Shown in pieces: positions 1,388-40,907 of a stretch of DNA of 40,907 nucleotides. The stretch lies in contig PWNW01000380.1 of NCBI GenBank assembly GCA_003557605.1, positions 1-40,907 of the forward strand, given 5' to 3'. The notes under the pieces are model-generated. The model was not told where the DNA came from. It ran no database searches and worked only from the letters and a program-made list of their open reading frames with translations. The position numbers and the translations under genes were made by a program. The stretch comes from Spirochaetaceae bacterium. Lineage in GTDB: Bacteria; Spirochaetota; Spirochaetia; PWKH01. Numbering within the stretch: position 1 is the first letter of the stretch; every line of letters begins with the position of its first letter.

Positions 1388-3235
1388 GTGGTGTACCAGT
1401 TTCCCATCGGTGCTGATCCCCATGCGAATATTGCTGCTTCGGTGAGCGGCGGCATCGGAGATATTGAACTTGGCTTTTCCCAGGCTGACAAGGTGATTGA
1501 ACGTACCTACCGATCGAGCCAGGTGCAGTGCACTCCTCTTGAGACCCATGTGGCATATACAAAGATGGAGGGAGACCGTCTGGTTATTCACGCATCAACC
1601 CAGGTGCCGTGGCACCTGAGGAGGATCCTTGCAGCGGTGCTGGGGATCAATGAAAACAAGGTGCGTGTAATTAAGGAGCGTGTCGGAGGCGGGTACGGGT
1701 CCAAGCAGGATATTCTGCTTGAGGATGTGTGCGCCTACGGAACCTGGATCACCGGTCGTCCGGTTTATTTCCGCTACACCAGGGAGGAGGAGTTCATTGC
1801 CAACAGCACCCGTCATGTGATGGACATCACGGTGAAGCTCGGAGCGGATGCAGAGGGAAAGATTACGGCCATGTACATGAACGTAGAGGCCAGCACCGGT
1901 CCCTACGGCAATCACTGCCTCACCGTACCGATGAACGCTTGTTCTAAATCACTTCCCCTGATCATCTGCGATCATGTGAAGTTTGACGTAACCACCTATT
2001 ACGGGAATATCCCGCCAACTGGCGCATACCAGGGGTACGGCGCTCCCAAGGGTTCCTTCGCCTTGATGACCGCCATGGCGGAACTGGCTGAAGAGCTTGG
2101 CATCGACTATCTGGAGCTGATTGAAAAGAACCGGGTGAGGGAGGGCACCATGCTGGAGATACTTAAGTGTCTCGGAGAGGGACGCGAGGGATCTGCGGCA
2201 CCTGTTGAAAGCTGCGGCCTTGATGAAGCATTGCGTCGGGGCCTTGAACTGATGAACTGGGACGAGAAGCCCGTAAGCGACGATGAAGACATCCGCATTG
2301 GGCGGGGTTTTGCCATTATCCAGCAGGGGTCAGGGCTGCCGGGGCTGGACCATTCCTGCGCATATATTCGGATGCTTGCCGACGGGACCTTTATGCTCCA
2401 TTCCGGCGGGGCGGACCTGGGAACAGGGCTTGATACCGTATCGGTGAAGTTTGCCGCAGAACAGCTGTGCGTCGACATGGACCGGATATCGATTATTTCA
2501 GGTGATACCGACACCACACCTTTTGATACCGGTGCATATGCATCAAGCGGCACCTATTTTTCCGGCAGCGCCTCCATGGAGGCCGCCAGGGACTTAAAAA
2601 CAAAGATCCTGCAGACTGCGGCTAAGATCCTCAAGGAGGATACTGGCGGCCTTCAGGTTCAGTACCCTGGGGTGGTCCGGGGTGAGGGCGGAGAGGTCTC
2701 CTTTCTTGATATCGCCAGGGCTGCCCAGTCGGGGGAGGGTGACGGTGAGCTGATGGGGTATGCATCATTTACTACCGAGAACTTTTCGTTCCCCTACGGG
2801 GCCCATTTCTGTCAGGTTGCTGTTCATATGAAGACCGGAGAGATTGAAGTTCAGAAGTATTATGCGCTTCAGGACTGCGGCACTCCGGTGAATCCCGATC
2901 TGGCCCTTGGTCAGATATACGGAGGTGTGCTGAAGACCATCGGCCACAGCCTCTATGAGCAGATGCAGTTTGATTCCCGCGGAGTGTGCGTAAATCCTGT
3001 CCTCAAGGATTACGGAGTTCCGATGATCGGTGACCTGCCGAAGGATTTTCAGGCCCATCTGATATACACCGAAGATCCCTACGGCCCCTACGGCGCCAAG
3101 TCAATTTCTGAAGTCAGCTGCAACGGTGCTTCACCGGCCCTGGCTTCAGCGATTCATGATGCTGCGGGAGTCTGGATCAGAGAGTGGCCCTTTACTCCGG
3201 AGAAGATTCTGCGGGGTTTGGGAAAGATTACCTGA
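1388..3235 (+). CDS. xdhD: XdhD-type molybdenum hydroxylase, molybdopterin-binding segment; same frame as 362..1321, so the pair may be one gene with an internal stop (possible pseudogene)
   Basis: Motifs present: ERVGGGYGSKQD, YQGYGAPKGSFA, SGDTDTTPFDTGAYASSGTYFSG, DCGTPVNPDLALGQIYGGVLKTIGHSLYE, and GAKSISE (catalytic Glu region). The 22 codons 1322-1387 upstream are open in the same frame. Confidence 0.75.
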   Translation: MVYQFPIGADPHANIAASVSGGIGDIELGFSQADKVIERTYRSSQVQCTPLETHVAYTKMEGDRLVIHASTQVPWHLRRILAAVLGINENKVRVIKERVGGGYGSKQDILLEDVCAYGTWITGRPVYFRYTREEEFIANSTRHVMDITVKLGADAEGKITAMYMNVEASTGPYGNHCLTVPMNACSKSLPLIICDHVKFDVTTYYGNIPPTGAYQGYGAPKGSFALMTAMAELAEELGIDYLELIEKNRVREGTMLEILKCLGEGREGSAAPVESCGLDEALRRGLELMNWDEKPVSDDEDIRIGRGFAIIQQGSGLPGLDHSCAYIRMLADGTFMLHSGGADLGTGLDTVSVKFAAEQLCVDMDRISIISGDTDTTPFDTGAYASSGTYFSGSASMEAARDLKTKILQTAAKILKEDTGGLQVQYPGVVRGEGGEVSFLDIARAAQSGEGDGELMGYASFTTENFSFPYGAHFCQVAVHMKTGEIEVQKYYALQDCGTPVNPDLALGQIYGGVLKTIGHSLYEQMQFDSRGVCVNPVLKDYGVPMIGDLPKDFQAHLIYTEDPYGPYGAKSISEVSCNGASPALASAIHDAAGVWIREWPFTPEKILRGLGKIT

Positions 3236-3279
3236 GTTCGCGGTAAGCGGACCAATGACATAAGGAGAACAGGAGTACC

Positions 3280-4476
3280 ATGAATACAAAACAGGTTACA
3301 GACATGATAAGTCTGCTGGAATCGCTTGATACCGGGCAGATGTACCTCGGCGATTTTTTCCATACGTGGAAAAAACTTGATGATGAAATTACTGCGGTCT
3401 TTCAGACTGCAGAAATCCTTCGGGCGCTGCGGGAGATGAATATTTCCACCAGACTCTTTGACAGCGGACTGGGAATTTCCATTTTTCGTGACAACTCTAC
3501 ACGGACCCGGTTCAGTTATGCCAGTGCATGCAATATGCTAGGCCTGGAAGTTCAGGACCTTGATGAAAAGACCAGTCAAATTGCCCATGGCGAGACCGTC
3601 AGGGAAACGGCCAATATGATATCTTTCATGGCCGACGTAATCGGCATCAGGGATGATATGTATATCGGGAAGGGACATCGGTACATGCAGGAAGTTGCTG
3701 ATTCTGTGCAGGAAGGATTCGATGACGGCGTCCTGGAACAGAGGCCGTCGGTGGTAAACCTGCAGTGCGATGTTGACCATCCTACCCAGTCCATGGCAGA
3801 TATGCTTCATGTGATCAACTACTTCGGGGGAATTGAGAACCTGAAGGGAAAAAAAATTGCCATGACCTGGGCGTATTCACCGTCCTACGGAAAGCCGCTG
3901 TCGGTGCCTCAGGGAATCATAGGGCTGTTTACCCGATTTGGTATGGACGTGGTGCTCGCCCATCCTGAAGGATACAATGTGATGCAGGATGTTGAACAGA
4001 CAGCGTTGAAGCAGGCAGAGGCAAGCGGCGGCAGGTATCAGCGGGTTTCTTCCATGGAGGAGGCCTTTACGAATGCTGATATCGTGTATCCAAAAAGCTG
4101 GGCTCCCTTTGCAGTTATGGAAGAGCGCACATCCCTTGTTGAAGAGGGTAAATGGGATGACTTGAAAGCTTTGGAGCAGCGTTGTCTTACCGAAAATGCG
4201 AAATACAAACACTGGGAATGCACTGAAGACCTGATGAAGCAGACCAAGGATGGAAAAGCGCTGTATATGCACTGCCTTCCCGCAGATATCTCAGGGGTCA
4301 GCTGCACTGAGGGCGAGGTTGCTGCTTCAGTGTTTGAGCGGTACCGGGTCCCCTTGTACAAGGAGGCAAGCTACAAGCCCTACATTATTGCTTCCATGAT
4401 TCTGCTCAGCAGGTTCGAAAACCCCGCAGAAAAGCTGTCAATGCTTCTTGAGAATGCACAGCTAAGGGTACGGTAA
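3280..4476 (+). CDS. ygeW: YgeW-type (knotted) carbamoyltransferase
   Basis: AAGGAG RBS precedes the ATG. The product is 398 aa. Motifs FRDNSTRTRFSYASA, IAHGETVRETANMISF, NLQCDVDHPTQSMADM, KIAMTWAYSPSYGKPLSVPQGIIGL and YMHCLPADISGVSC closely track E. coli YgeW as I recall it. Confidence 0.9.
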   Translation: MNTKQVTDMISLLESLDTGQMYLGDFFHTWKKLDDEITAVFQTAEILRALREMNISTRLFDSGLGISIFRDNSTRTRFSYASACNMLGLEVQDLDEKTSQIAHGETVRETANMISFMADVIGIRDDMYIGKGHRYMQEVADSVQEGFDDGVLEQRPSVVNLQCDVDHPTQSMADMLHVINYFGGIENLKGKKIAMTWAYSPSYGKPLSVPQGIIGLFTRFGMDVVLAHPEGYNVMQDVEQTALKQAEASGGRYQRVSSMEEAFTNADIVYPKSWAPFAVMEERTSLVEEGKWDDLKALEQRCLTENAKYKHWECTEDLMKQTKDGKALYMHCLPADISGVSCTEGEVAASVFERYRVPLYKEASYKPYIIASMILLSRFENPAEKLSMLLENAQLRVR

Positions 4477-36674: not shown

Positions 36675-38024
36675 ATGGAACGTATGGCAAGCACCGGAAG
36701 AGTGCCTCCTCATAATGCAGATGCGGAGAAAGCTGTTCTCGGTGCGGTCATGCTTGACCCTGAAGCGCTTGAAACGGTAATTGATTACCTGAGGCCGGAA
36801 GACTTCTATCGAAAGTCCCATCAGAAAATATTCACAACTATTCTCAATCTGGACGCACAGCATGATCCCCTCGATATTATCACCGTAACTGACCGACTTA
36901 AAAAAGATAACGTCCTTGAAATGTGCGGCGGCGCATCGTATATCTCTGATTTGACCTCCAGCGTGCCCTCAAGCGCAAATGTGAAGTATTATGCTCAAAT
37001 GGTGCAGAGCACCAGTGTGAAGCGTAAGCTTATCAGGGCGTCGACGGAGATTATTGATCTTGCCTACAACGAGCAGGAGGACCATAAGGAAATCCTTGCT
37101 GAGGCGCAGAAACAGATTTTCACCATTCTTGAGGGCGATCAGATCCGCGGCGGATACAGGACCAGCGATGATGTGGTGAATGAGACCATCAATATTATTG
37201 AAAAGCTTTATAAAGCAGGTGGAGACTACACTGGGGTTCCCTCCGGGTTTCCTGAGCTTGACAAAATGACCAGCGGTTTTCAGCCCTCTGATTTTGTCGT
37301 TATTGGGGCACGTCCATCGGTAGGGAAGACCGCCTTTGCACTCACTATTGTTCAGCATATGGCGGTAAAAAAGAAGGTTCCTGTCGGGTTTTTTACCCTT
37401 GAAATGTCAGGCCGGTTATTAATGCAGCGTCTTATGGCCAATGAAGCACGGATTGATCTCCAGAAAATTCGAAGCGGCATGCTGAAGCATTCTGATTTAG
37501 CGAAACTCATGGAAGCTGCAGCGCGTCTGTATGAAGCGCCTTTGTTTATTGAGGATACCCCCAATGCAAAGCTGCTTGACCTGCGGGCACAGGCAAGAAG
37601 GATGAAGAAAAATGAGAACATCCAGGCTTTGTTTGTAGATTATATCGGGCTGGTAGAACCTGAAAACAGGGGAAATGTACCAAGGCATGAGCAGGTTTCT
37701 GAAATTTCACGTTCCATGAAGGCCCTTGCAAGAGAACTTGATATCCCCGTGATCTGTCTGTCCCAGGTAGGACGGCAGTCGGAGGGAAAGGAGCCAACTC
37801 TTGCAGACATCAGGGAGTCCGGGTCCATTGAACAGGATGCTGACGTGGTGCTGTTTATTCACAAGGAACGTGAGACGGAGAATCGGGACCAGGCAGCAGA
37901 ACAGATGATCATGGAGACTGACATCATCGTAGCAAAACAGAGAAACGGTCCGGTAGGTCATTTCAAACTGGGATTCAATAAACGGTTTGTAAAATTTGAG
38001 TCCCTTTCACGGGATCGAGGGTAA
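36675..38024 (+). CDS. dnaB: Replicative DNA helicase
   Basis: PPHNADAEKAVLGAVMLDP marks the N-domain. Walker A GARPSVGKTAF, Walker B FVDYIGL and SGSIEQDADVV are present. Confidence 0.95.
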   Translation: MERMASTGRVPPHNADAEKAVLGAVMLDPEALETVIDYLRPEDFYRKSHQKIFTTILNLDAQHDPLDIITVTDRLKKDNVLEMCGGASYISDLTSSVPSSANVKYYAQMVQSTSVKRKLIRASTEIIDLAYNEQEDHKEILAEAQKQIFTILEGDQIRGGYRTSDDVVNETINIIEKLYKAGGDYTGVPSGFPELDKMTSGFQPSDFVVIGARPSVGKTAFALTIVQHMAVKKKVPVGFFTLEMSGRLLMQRLMANEARIDLQKIRSGMLKHSDLAKLMEAAARLYEAPLFIEDTPNAKLLDLRAQARRMKKNENIQALFVDYIGLVEPENRGNVPRHEQVSEISRSMKALARELDIPVICLSQVGRQSEGKEPTLADIRESGSIEQDADVVLFIHKERETENRDQAAEQMIMETDIIVAKQRNGPVGHFKLGFNKRFVKFESLSRDRG

Positions 38025-38903
38025 CTCCTTCAGGTAAGCTGTAATATCTGAGCGCATCTGAGGAGTCTCCTCATGACCGCAGTCGTAGATGTTCAGCTTC
38101 CACGACTCAGGCGTACCAGCTTCTGTATATGCCTGTTTCACCGACTTATGTATTTTTTCTACTCCTTTCATGGGAGTTAAGGGATCACGTGATCCGACGA
38201 GGGAAAAATGCCTTCTCGGTGCCGCCATTGCTATGATTGATGAAGCTGAGAACTCCTTAAGCAGTCCTGGAACGTAGTAGTACAGTCCATGAAGATCAAT
38301 GCCTCCGCTGCGTATCAGTTCATCAAAGTCAGTGAGGCAGCACAGATCAATACAGAAGGCAATGCGCTGATCAAGGGAAGCGCACCACCAGGCCATGGTG
38401 CTTCCCATGGACATCCCCATGATGCCAATGCAGTGTCTGTTTATATCATCACGAAGGTGAAGGTACTCCACCAGGCGAAGGGTGTCATACACCATCATGC
38501 CCCACAAGGTGCTTCCCTTCCAGAGAAACTCCTTAAACAGTTCTGACTCGCTTCTCAGATGCCGTTCTCCAAAACCCCAGGAATCAATGCAGATCACCCC
38601 AAACCCAAGGGATGTCAGGACTTCAGCATAAGGAGGGTCCTGCATATAGGGGATGCCTTCATAGAGTTCCCGTTTTCCTATGCTGTATGCCCCTCCATGG
38701 GCATGGGCATAGATAATCACAGGATGGGGACCTTGACGCCGGGGAAGAAAGCAGACTGCCGGCACCGGTTCAATACCGTTCAGGTCAAGCAGCAGGTCCT
38801 CCCGGTACGCCCAGGACTCCTGAGTTACTGTCTTTCTCATTACCCTCGGGGGACCTTCAATGTTCGGCAAGTCTCCCAGATACCTCAGCAGTGCTTTTGA
38901 CAT
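38007..38903 (-). CDS. Alpha/beta-fold hydrolase (acetyl-esterase/dienelactone-hydrolase-like)
   Basis: The start is set at ATG 38903, 7 nt after AGGAG. The nucleophile elbow GMSMGS is present, with HAHGG upstream and a C-terminal CGHEE (His) region. The 3' end overlaps dnaB by 18 nt. Confidence 0.75.
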   Translation of the reverse strand: MSKALLRYLGDLPNIEGPPRVMRKTVTQESWAYREDLLLDLNGIEPVPAVCFLPRRQGPHPVIIYAHAHGGAYSIGKRELYEGIPYMQDPPYAEVLTSLGFGVICIDSWGFGERHLRSESELFKEFLWKGSTLWGMMVYDTLRLVEYLHLRDDINRHCIGIMGMSMGSTMAWWCASLDQRIAFCIDLCCLTDFDELIRSGGIDLHGLYYYVPGLLKEFSASSIIAMAAPRRHFSLVGSRDPLTPMKGVEKIHKSVKQAYTEAGTPESWKLNIYDCGHEETPQMRSDITAYLKELPSIP

Positions 38904-38981
38904 AACGTTACTCCTGAAGATATCATACATGAGAACGCAGGTATTGGCAAATACAGCTCAGATGAAGATGCAGTATCATGG

Positions 38982-39012
38982 AAAAGGGGACAGTGTCAAA
39001 CTGTCCCCTTTT
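38982..39012 (-). terminator. Rho-independent terminator after the hybrid ORF (usable in both directions)
   Basis: AAAAGGGGACAGT (38982-38994) pairs perfectly with ACTGTCCCCTTTT (39000-39012) across a 5-nt loop. Confidence 0.7.
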
Positions 39013-39028: not shown

Positions 39029-39922
39029 CTATTTTCCAGCCAGTGAAATGACCTTTTCGTAGCCGAAGAGTTCATCACGCTTCATGGTTCCCTTTTCAGC
39101 AGTGATTCCGTAGGTCTCATGGAGCTGTGAAAGAAATGCATCGATGAATTCATGGTTTTCAGGCCGTTTTCCCGTCTCTTCAAGTACGGAGGTTGAAGGT
39201 TCCAGTACTTTGTCCTTGATTTCCGGTGAAACCCAAACAACTTTGAACAGCTCCTTGGTCTCAAGGGGAGCAAGAAACAGCACTACATTTACTGTTATCA
39301 GGTTTTCAATTTCTGAAACAAGAATATTCGCAATCTTTTTTCCGCCAACTCTTACTCCGCCGCGATGACGGTACCAGGCATCAACCCCAAACCGCTTCAG
39401 GGTATCCACAAGCAGATTTCCTACATCACGGAATGCATCCTCAGGAGATGAGAAGGAACTGCGGTCAGTTACCATCTGAATGTTGATGGTGGAATCCGGG
39501 GACACAAACACCAGAGTTCTCTGCCCGGTAAGCACCACATGCTCCAAAGTGGGAACATCATCCCTGATCTCATTGATCAGATTGGCAAAATTGCTCAAGG
39601 TAATAAGCACCTTGGCCTGGCAGTCATTGAGAATATAGGTAATCTCCCTTCCCTTATACATAGAGTTGAAGGGGACTGCGACAGCTCCGATTTTCTGAAT
39701 GCCGAAAAAGCAGTACACAAATTCCGGAATGTTGGGCAGCATCATGGCAACCCGGTCACCCTGTTTTACTCCAAGGGAAACAAGGGCATTGGCAGATTTG
39801 TTCGCATGTTCATTCAGTTCACGGTATGAGATTTTTTTTCCCTCAAAGTAGAGGGCATCCTTTCTTTTATATGCCTTGGTGATCGTCTCCAGCATGTGGG
39901 CTAAATGTTTGATTTCACTCAT
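39029..39922 (-). CDS. Hybrid ORF: N-terminal ~130 aa of an AMP-dependent acyl-CoA synthetase joined to the C-terminal half of a lipoate/biotin protein ligase (BPL_LplA_LipB)-like domain
   Basis: The N-terminus reads ALYFEGKKISYRELNEHANKSANALVSLGVKQGDRVAMMLPNIPEFVYCFFGIQKIGAVAVPFNSMYKGREITYILNDCQAKVLIT, which is an ACS N-domain. The C-terminus reads LKRFGVDAWYRHRGGVRVGGKKIANIL...VVLFLAP...STSVLEETG...FIDAFLSQLHETYG, which is LplA/LplJ-like. A strong GGAGGAGGAAG RBS is present, and the start overlaps the upstream stop by 8 nt. Confidence 0.65.
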   Translation of the reverse strand: MSEIKHLAHMLETITKAYKRKDALYFEGKKISYRELNEHANKSANALVSLGVKQGDRVAMMLPNIPEFVYCFFGIQKIGAVAVPFNSMYKGREITYILNDCQAKVLITLSNFANLINEIRDDVPTLEHVVLTGQRTLVFVSPDSTINIQMVTDRSSFSSPEDAFRDVGNLLVDTLKRFGVDAWYRHRGGVRVGGKKIANILVSEIENLITVNVVLFLAPLETKELFKVVWVSPEIKDKVLEPSTSVLEETGKRPENHEFIDAFLSQLHETYGITAEKGTMKRDELFGYEKVISLAGK

Positions 39923-40907
39923 CTGAAGCTTCCTCCTCCTGGAGAATCAGCCGTTTGTCAACTGTGTCTGCGTTTCTCAGTTCCTTGCGGAGCACTTTTC
40001 CTGTAGCACTTTTCGGCAGACTCTCACTGAATTCTACAATCTTCGGGATTTTATACTCCGCAAGATGTTCGCGGCAGAACTGAAGGATTTCCTGTGAGGT
40101 GCTCTCCATTCCATCCTTGAGCACAACGAAGGCCTTCACGGTTTCCCGTTCTCGTTTGTCTTTTACCGCAACCACAGCTGCTTCCTCCACCGGAGGAAAA
40201 CTCATGATGACTTCCTCAACCTCACGGGGAGAAATATTGAATCCACCTCGAACTATCAGGTCCTTTTTTCTGTCGGTAATGAAGAAAAACCCGTCTGCAT
40301 CACGATACCCTAAATCCCCAGTAGCAAACCAGAGGTCCTTAATCACTTCATCGGTAGCTTCCTGGTTGTTCCAGTATCCGGTTGTCACTACTTCACCCTT
40401 GATGATAATCTCACCTTCGGTTCCGTCGGGAACATCGTTTCCGTCAAAGTCAACTACCTTCATATCAACCCCGGGAGAAGCTGGACCGATAGACCCCGGC
40501 TTGAACTGTTCCCCGGTCTTGTTCAGAGAAACCGCTGAAGTTGTCTCGGTAAGTCCGTATCCCTCGGCAATCTGAGTCTGGAAAAGCTCCATAAACTCCT
40601 CAAGGGTCTTCATCGGCAGCGGTGCTCCTCCTGAAACGCAGAGCCTTAGGCTCTTTGGTATTTCAGTTTTTCTGGCACGGGCAATCTGCAGAAGGTGCAT
40701 ATACATGCTTGGTACTGCAATCAGCAGAGTTGCTGTCGTAGAGGTAATAGTATCCAGAAGCTTTGCAGGGCTGTACTGCGGTATAAGCGACATAGCACAG
40801 CCGTTACGAGTCCCGCATACAAGACCATTGGAAAGCCCGTACACATGGAAGAGGGGACGCACCAGCACCACCGTGTCCTTGTGGGACATGGGCATAATAT
40901 TCTCAAC
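39915..40907 (-). CDS. AMP-dependent acyl-CoA synthetase/ligase, C-terminal two-thirds; N-terminus lies beyond the window end
   Basis: The frame is open to base 40907 (VENIMPMSHKD...). Motifs: YGLTETTS, TGDLGYRDADGFFFITDRKKDLI, GGFNISPREVEE and LPKSATGKVLRKEL. Confidence 0.85.
   Translation of the reverse strand, partial: VENIMPMSHKDTVVLVRPLFHVYGLSNGLVCGTRNGCAMSLIPQYSPAKLLDTITSTTATLLIAVPSMYMHLLQIARARKTEIPKSLRLCVSGGAPLPMKTLEEFMELFQTQIAEGYGLTETTSAVSLNKTGEQFKPGSIGPASPGVDMKVVDFDGNDVPDGTEGEIIIKGEVVTTGYWNNQEATDEVIKDLWFATGDLGYRDADGFFFITDRKKDLIVRGGFNISPREVEEVIMSFPPVEEAAVVAVKDKRERETVKAFVVLKDGMESTSQEILQFCREHLAEYKIPKIVEFSESLPKSATGKVLRKELRNADTVDKRLILQEEEASDE

Follow-up and report, generated by a model that had tools for sequence, protein, structure and literature searches.

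Two adjacent genes of a Spirochaetaceae bacterium appear to share an acyl-CoA synthetase and a lipoate-ligase-type domain reciprocally between their products

Split enzymes and domain insertions are each already known, and several described systems come close to the one considered here. In interrupted nonribosomal peptide synthetase (NRPS) adenylation (A) domains, a foreign domain is embedded between motifs a2 and a3, a6 and a7, or a8 and a9 (PMC8341866). In corallorazine synthetase, the genes for Crz1 and Crz2 supply the A domain between them; activity requires mixing of the two proteins, and the authors call this split A domain the first experimental report of its kind (PMC11342130). Here we analyze a pair of adjacent open reading frames, ORF1 and ORF2, at one end of contig PWNW01000380.1 from a Spirochaetaceae metagenome-assembled genome (MAG; GCA_003557605.1). 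The whole contig of 40,907 nucleotides is referred to below as the window. Between them, the two genes appear to encode one acyl-coenzyme A (CoA) synthetase (ACS) and one catalytic domain of the lipoate-protein ligase (LplA) type.

The pair resembles the interrupted A domains in that an ANL N-domain is broken by another fold between a2 and a3. In those enzymes, however, a whole methyltransferase is inserted and everything lies on one polypeptide within an NRPS, whereas the foreign fold of the pair is of the LplA type and is itself split, and the whole extends over two polypeptides, with half of either fold on each; no NRPS domains were found near the pair. The Crz1/Crz2 break follows an inserted methyltransferase and falls at a8-a9, where the N- and C-subdomains are naturally hinged. 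That of ORF1/ORF2 is within the N-domain, at a2-a3, and is accompanied by a second fold that is split reciprocally.

The lipoate ligases offer a further comparison. In Thermoplasma acidophilum LplA-LplB (PDB 3r07) the LplA family is likewise distributed over two genes, and the invariant lysine is retained in the pair. LplA-LplB is split between its catalytic and accessory domains, whereas ORF1/ORF2 is split within the catalytic domain, with the accessory domain absent and the canonical His-Asp missing. Among full-length proteins, those nearest to the two LplA-like halves are Asgard proteins (Lokiarchaeia, Freyarchaeota) of the 'biotin/lipoate A/B protein ligase family' (P0160, P0177, P0185-P0187). 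These are single chains of 361-370 aa with a full LplA-B_cat domain and a weak LplB-like C-terminal domain, and their genes stand alone without an ACS partner; their genomic context was uninformative. The unsplit LplA-like relatives match solved lipoate-protein ligases (3r07 and single-chain LplA, e.g. 6jom and 5iby). The remaining likeness is to the PRK06187 subfamily of medium/long-chain acyl-CoA synthetases, whose cut-off the re-joined ACS sequence exceeds, and to Mycobacterium tuberculosis FadD13, which it matches end to end, but the ACS of this family is never one chain and would carry an interlaced LplA-fold module. None of the systems compared combines two reciprocal intradomain splits. 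No description of a split or heteromeric ACS-LplA enzyme was found in the literature searched, and we found no described precedent for two unrelated folds each cut once, with the halves shared across two polypeptides.

Composition of the two chains

ORF2 lies at 39029-39922 on the minus strand and encodes 297 aa. The original prediction, made from the DNA sequence, described it as an ACS N-domain that never reaches the P-loop, followed by the second half of a lipoate-ligase-like domain, and our searches agree with both parts of this description. The features of ORF2 are as follows.

39518-39922, minus strand: residues 1-135, ACS N-terminal piece with motifs a1-a2 (PF00501, PRK06187, Foldseek)
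39665-39697, minus strand: QKIGAVAVPFN of the ACS piece
39029-39517, minus strand: residues 136-297 and the stop codon, C-terminal half of an LplA/LipB-type catalytic domain (PF21948, BLASTP to P0160, alignment)
39329-39346, minus strand: GGKKIA with Lys196, an invariant alignment column
39209-39226, minus strand: PEIKDK
39053-39082, minus strand: KRDELFGYEK helix

Residues 15-130 match the Pfam AMP-binding profile PF00501 at positions 5-123 of 384 (E 7e-33), and on the NCBIfam profile PRK06187 (531 positions) ORF2 covers positions 8-145 with 126 bits, stopping short of the P-loop. For the second half, residues 145-267 match Pfam LplA-B_cat (PF21948) at positions 74-199 of 200 (32.4 bits, cut-off 27), rather than the PF03099 family that had been expected. 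BLASTP aligned residues 137-290 with residues 81-240 of the unsplit P0160 (E 1e-23, 34% identity over 160 residues), and the C-terminus of ORF2 corresponds to P0160 residue ~245. A phmmer search of the C-terminal half against PDB sequences gave no match. Lys196 (GGKKIA) aligns with DRKITG of P0160 and GKKVSG of 6jom, and we take its counterpart to be K133 of E. coli LplA, within G(R/K)K(I/V)SG.

The gene upstream, ORF1, had been described as ending in a complete ACS C-terminus, but it is not a complete ACS. It runs off the end of the contig, and the window holds its 3' part with the following features.

39915-40907, minus strand: ORF1, 3' part, 330 codons, cut by the contig end; ACS motifs a4-a10 and the AMP-binding_C lid
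40545-40562, minus strand: GYGLTE
40308-40322, minus strand: TGDLG
40260-40277, minus strand: TDRKKD
39996-40016, minus strand: PKSATGK, with the A10 lysine

The in-window part starts at AMP-binding profile position 201, just past the P-loop, and the P-loop itself (YTSGTTGNPKG) lies outside the window, on contig C375 of the same MAG and on the sister-strain contig L087. Full ORF1 is about 477 aa long (463-504 aa among the homologues found). It matches AMP-binding from profile position 151 on (151-384) and PRK06187 at positions 146-522 (389 bits). The ACS catalytic motifs are all in ORF1 and invariant in its alignment (YTSGTTGxPKG, EGYGLTE, TGDLG, TDRKKD, LPKSATGK), while its true N-terminus is without the a1-a2 region. 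The ACS piece of ORF2, which had been read as a duplicated N-domain, is the only copy.

The N-terminal ~100 residues of ORF1 alone gave no Pfam or NCBIfam match. The first ~90 residues are highly conserved, with the consensus WRLIxNPxGDAADxLAYPSALVEGRIAGKYMLSxEKLPDTVVVQGxxxKGILAGADVxIDKExAKxxDIxVAxxPRSGRGG. This region was identified through the unsplit relatives found with the C-terminal half of ORF2 as query: BLASTP aligned ORF1 residues 8-85 with P0160 residues 5-79 (E 2e-5, 27% identity over 82 residues).

Placed on the same references, the two chains are complementary. PRK06187 is divided at 145|146, with positions 8-145 in ORF2 and 146-522 in ORF1, and the LplA-like domain of P0160 is divided into residues 5-79 in ORF1 and 81-240 in ORF2. 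As aligned, the ACS is cut between motifs a2 and a3, with the first piece in ORF2 and the remainder in ORF1, and the break falls between QKIGAVAVPFN (ORF2) and YTSGTTGNPKG (ORF1). The LplA-like domain is cut, on the same kind of evidence, between G80 and V81 of P0160, directly after the RRxxGGG-type loop. These alignments make ORF1 an LplA N-terminal piece plus the rest of an ACS (residues 1 to ~88 LplA-like, the remainder ACS, beginning in the a2/a3 loop and including the C-terminus) and ORF2 an ACS N-terminal piece plus an LplA C-terminal piece (residues 1 to ~135 ACS, followed by the LplA-like part, which begins with the strand after the Gly loop and takes in the rest of the catalytic domain). 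A complete ACS N-terminal domain (a1-a8) was found in neither ORF1 nor ORF2, and no single chain holds the whole LplA catalytic domain, which is split after the Gly loop. Judged from sequence, neither fold is complete in a single chain and both are complete in the pair.

The pieces were then re-joined using locus L002, as ORF2(1-135)+ORF1(89-475) for the ACS and ORF1(1-88)+ORF2(136-297) for the LplA-like domain. The re-joined ACS contains all ten motifs and gives one uninterrupted PF00501 match (5-384 of 384, 333.6 bits). On PRK06187 it scores 520.9 bits against a curated cut-off of 476, with ORF1 or ORF2 alone below that cut-off, and it is colinear end to end with FadD13 (3r44), across the joint, at E 3e-82. 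The re-joined LplA-like domain scores 48.8 bits on PF21948 (positions 49-199), in an alignment that crosses the joint. An HMMER scan of the LplA-like half of ORF2 against 1.84 billion representative proteins returned 26 matches, which were ORF2-type proteins or short fragments (up to 318 aa) and a few unsplit LplA-like proteins of 361-369 aa. No unsplit ACS-LplA chain or natural fusion was present in that scan.

Conservation of the pair and predicted co-folding

At least 120 full-length homologues of ORF2 were found, with identities of 57-95%; almost all are ~297-300 aa long, and most show both Pfam matches. In GTDB, taking one genome per species, 103 stretches encode a relative, and the pair is counted in 103 species genomes of Spirochaetota, Desulfobacterota and WOR-3. 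We kept 80 of these loci, from Spirochaetota (Alkalispirochaeta, Spirochaeta and many soda-lake MAGs), Desulfobacterota and one WOR-3 MAG, and scored them with purpose-built hidden Markov models of the four pieces. ORF1 lies immediately before ORF2 in 66 of the 67 loci with enough upstream DNA. The lone exception, L072, is due to an assembly gap: a stretch of N stands where ORF1 would be, and the ORF1 3' end is retained. Separate intact fadD-like and lplA-like genes, which had been proposed as the arrangement that would support a deletion, occur at this locus in none of the 80. A gene for a sodium:solute symporter (SSF; PutP/PanF/MctP-like) is directly upstream of the pair in 53 of the 80 loci, across phyla.

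All four pieces are under purifying selection. Measured against the sister locus L087, the ratio of nonsynonymous to synonymous substitution rates (dN/dS) is 0.016 for the ACS N-terminal piece, 0.037 for the LplA C-terminal piece, 0.026 for the LplA N-terminal piece and 0.027-0.036 for the rest of the ACS. As the LplA-like pieces have values as low as the ACS core, the LplA-like module presumably does something.

A few MAGs among the kept loci bear other taxon labels. L005, L009, L031 and L040 come from MAGs labelled Latescibacterota, Clostridiales and Desulfobacteraceae, with 61-67% identity to the ORF2 of the window, and the soda-lake sediment series that yielded the spirochaete MAGs is also the source of three of these four. 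Contamination during binning looks a better explanation of their spirochaete-like copies than a true distribution. The whole pair is present twice in two genomes (OZ271854.1, L019 and L061; CAZPXH01, L062 and L064), and in each the SSF symporter precedes one copy only.

The two genes of the window overlap. The ATG of ORF2 at 39922 overlaps the ORF1 stop (TGA, 39917-39915) within ATGAGTGA, and the position of ORF2, its overlapping start and the strong ribosome-binding site inside the upstream gene all agree with the original prediction.

39915-39922, minus strand: 8-nt overlap ATGAGTGA of the ORF2 start and the ORF1 stop, the translational-coupling junction
39929-39939, minus strand: Shine-Dalgarno-like GGAGGAGGAAG for ORF2, within the end of ORF1 and 6 nt before the ATG (read directly)

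Among the relatives, the junction is mostly -8, -4, -1, 0 or +3 nt, with extremes of -50 and +172 nt, and all three frames occur. In 12 related loci (L004, L005, L034, L037, L038, L041, L048, L049, L057, L060, L061, L070) a single reading frame contains both ORF1 and ORF2, interrupted by one stop codon (TAA, TAG or TGA), and in some of these the ORF2 start codon directly follows the stop. One mutation would fuse the two genes in these 12 loci, and no fused gene was found; nor was an ORF1-ORF2 fusion present anywhere among the related loci.

The possibility that the two chains fold together was approached by modeling. AlphaFold2 gave ORF2 alone (35 sequences) a mean predicted local distance difference test score (pLDDT) of 75 and a predicted template modeling score (pTM) of 0.47, with low confidence at the domain junction and at residues 224-240 and 279-297. 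Joined chains were made from the same-frame loci by reading the single stop as Gly, purely as a modeling device and with no claim of read-through. The joined L004 chain of 774 aa (alignment of 9 joined, 21 ORF1 and 35 ORF2 rows) reached a mean pLDDT of 87.4 and a pTM of 0.82. In this model the artificial linker alone is clearly low, three stretches of 3-4 residues also falling below pLDDT 50, and the ORF2 segments that are disordered alone reach 67-97. For the N-terminal piece of ORF1, block means range over 67-96, most of them higher than 80, and the predicted order of elements is strand-helix-strand-strand-helix-strand, which we take to be that expected of an LplA N-half. Foldseek with the ORF2 model returned ACS N-terminal domains only; for both the ORF2 and the joined model, the top 50 matches were all ACS, and the LplA fold was not shown separately.

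A two-subunit enzyme and its alternatives

Based on these results, we consider it likely, with a probability of roughly 80%, that the products of ORF1 and ORF2 form a single adenylate-forming enzyme, an obligate heterodimer with interlaced subunits. The overlapping stop and start, together with the strong Shine-Dalgarno sequence, would couple translation so that both chains are produced together, and we infer that they then co-fold. Each chain would keep the native N-terminus of one parent and the native C-terminus of a parent, with the crossover at one internal loop per fold. The rebuilt ANL core would hold every catalytic motif (the a3 P-loop, a5, a7, a8 and the A10 lysine) and could adenylate a carboxylate imported by the upstream sodium:solute symporter, giving an acyl-AMP and then, most likely, an acyl-CoA. 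The LplA-fold module may bind the acyl-adenylate or substrate, serve in regulation, or take part in acyl transfer. All four chain ends would be native, as expected if an lplA-like gene and an ACS gene had exchanged parts reciprocally, and the pair resembles the two products of such an event.

If correct, the pair would represent a natural obligate fold complementation at two sites at once, with relevance to the origin of multi-domain enzymes by recombination and to the design of split or interlocked proteins. It would also suggest that ANL enzymes can withstand a chain break, as well as an insertion, in the a2-a3 loop. Existing annotation names both genes 'long-chain acyl-CoA synthetase' or 'AMP-binding protein', which conceals the LplA-fold module and the presumed inability of either gene to function without the other. 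The operon of symporter and ligase is conserved in spirochaetes of soda lakes and in marine sulfate reducers.

Several points weigh against this interpretation. The homology of the ORF1 N-terminus is suggested by BLASTP to P0160 (E 2e-5) and by the model, and the first ~48 positions of the PF21948 profile are unmatched by it at the single-sequence level. The modeled chain is an artificial read-through construct built on a mostly unpaired alignment, and co-folding is indicated by confidence scores and secondary-structure order rather than by contacts seen. The canonical LplA His-Asp after the Gly loop is absent and the Gly loop is itself the crossover point, so the LplA-like site may be catalytically dead. 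On the substrate side, the re-joined ACS has generic matches at ~30% identity (FadD13 and feruloyl-, anthranilate-, oxalyl- and malonyl-CoA ligases), and the symporter scores under every equivalog cut-off. The genome encodes its own canonical LplA (C251:414-989, 216 bits on PF21948), a shorter LipB/LipM-like protein (C289:922-1485, 128 bits) and GcvH (C296:4501-4857), and therefore would not need the pair for ordinary lipoylation; a role as housekeeping lipoate salvage ligase was set aside for that reason.

The module nevertheless retains conserved features. Its invariant motifs are EGRxAGKYxLS, PE(I/V)KDKxxEP and KRDELFxYEK, and the Gly loop (RRxxGGGxV(Y/F)HD in the family) is partly kept, as PRSGRGG in ORF1 followed by TLVFVSP in ORF2. 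The original prediction had already given GQRTLVFVSP as the reading at the position of this motif. LplA-type ligases need an accessory C-terminal domain for adenylate formation. The pair has no such domain (Lip_prot_lig_C/LplB), and residues ~270-360 of P0160 are without a counterpart in ORF1 or ORF2.

These features leave room for a somewhat different enzyme, which we regard as possible but unlikely. The pair could be a hybrid ligase in which the ANL half forms the acyl-adenylate, standing in for the missing LplB-type accessory domain, and the LplA-fold half with Lys196 transfers the acyl group to a lysine on an acceptor protein or some other nucleophile, either in place of CoA as recipient or in addition to it. 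A lipoate-, octanoate- or biotin-like acid could then be imported as the substrate, which would fit because the symporter family includes pantothenate and multivitamin carriers. Neither the nearest ACS structures nor the symporter pointed to a specific substrate, and the conserved neighborhood of the pair contains no acceptor gene.

A less probable explanation, to which we give little weight, is that the two proteins are co-expressed and do not interlace, with ORF1 an N-terminally remodelled ACS and ORF2 a regulator or adaptor made of two degenerate half-domains. The ORF1-ORF2 complex is itself a prediction, and ORF1 holds all of the catalytic motifs a3-a10, both of which would suit such an arrangement. 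However, both folds are broken with residue-level precision, dN/dS among the four pieces is lowest (0.016) for the a1-a2 part carried by ORF2, and segments disordered in ORF2 alone are ordered in the joined model. To our knowledge, there is also no stable precedent for an ANL N-domain without its first ~145 residues (the a1-a2 sheet and helices), which likewise counts against it.

Production of a single polypeptide by programmed frameshifting or stop read-through at the junction seems very improbable. The 12 same-frame loci, with their single stop codon, are what would be expected of it, but across the relatives the junction occurs in all three frames, with gaps of -50 to +172 nt (mostly -8, -4 or -1). 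Each ORF2 has its own start codon, preceded in the window by the strong Shine-Dalgarno sequence, and no fused protein exists among the 1.84 billion representatives.

The original prediction had left a choice between a deletion scar and a novel in-frame combination coupled for expression. The former, in which ORF2 would be a decaying remnant of deletion or recombination that fused a duplicated ACS 5' end to an lplA-like 3' half, is refuted by conservation and selection. ORF2 alone does consist of two incomplete domains and gives a poorly packed model (pTM 0.47), but there is no duplicated ACS N-terminus, as ORF1 is without that region. More than 100 species in three phyla keep the architecture at full length, dN/dS is about 0.03 (0.016-0.037 across the pieces), and no locus has the intact separate genes. 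The latter proposal holds in so far as the combination appears functional and coupled; ORF2 is, however, not a stand-alone hybrid, and the unit is the reciprocal pair.

Misassembly, whether a chimeric join around 39500-39530 or a contig end that is false, can be dismissed. The MAG is fragmented (384 contigs, completeness 82%, contamination 4.6%), and the end of the contig overlaps another contig at only 96.3% identity, but the same junctions with the same residues recur in independent NCBI, JGI, ENA and Logan assemblies, in the isolates Alkalispirochaeta alkalica DSM 8900, A. americana and Spirochaeta africana, and in a closed 5-Mb chromosome, and L087 spans the entire operon. Conservation, selection and independent assemblies together exclude a pseudogene, scar or assembly artefact.

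The contig end and the neighboring genes

The window is the whole of contig C1 in a MAG of 2.67 Mb with 51% G+C. ORF1 is cut by the end of C1, and its 5' part lies on C375 at positions 2765-3720, directly downstream of an SSF symporter gene. C375 3206-3720 overlaps C1 40393-40907 over 515 nt at 96.3% nucleotide identity, with 19 mismatches and 2 amino-acid changes. This divergence suggests strain heterogeneity, and the break within ORF1 is probably due to co-assembled strains rather than to a repeat. ORF1 is complete on L087 and also in the relatives L001 and L002. The gene order on L087 is that of the window: a small ORF, SSF, ORF1, ORF2, a hydrolase-like gene, dnaB and rplI.

Across the 80 loci, nothing is conserved around the pair beyond the symporter and a small protein. 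The latter, a hydrophobic protein of 72-98 aa without a Pfam match, often precedes the SSF symporter. Its 72-aa version (L087 309-527, L002 2802-3020, with an equivalent upstream of SSF on C375) has no Pfam or NCBIfam match, recurs in at least 20 loci and probably has two transmembrane helices; it may be a small subunit of the transporter.

Downstream of ORF2, the operon is likely to end at an intrinsic terminator.

38982-39012, minus strand: hairpin with a 13-bp stem and A- and U-tract flanks, 17 nt past the ORF2 stop; folding energy -22.9 kcal/mol

The hairpin has a z score of -5.4, and none of 200 shuffled sequences was as stable; a consensus terminator scan did not list it. The gene beyond it (38007-38930, minus strand) encodes a 307-aa alpha/beta-hydrolase-like protein with weak Pfam matches solely (DLH and Abhydrolase_1, E about 1e-3). 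A homologue follows ORF2 in L087 and not in L002. In the window, the 3' end of this gene overlaps the convergent dnaB by 18 nt.

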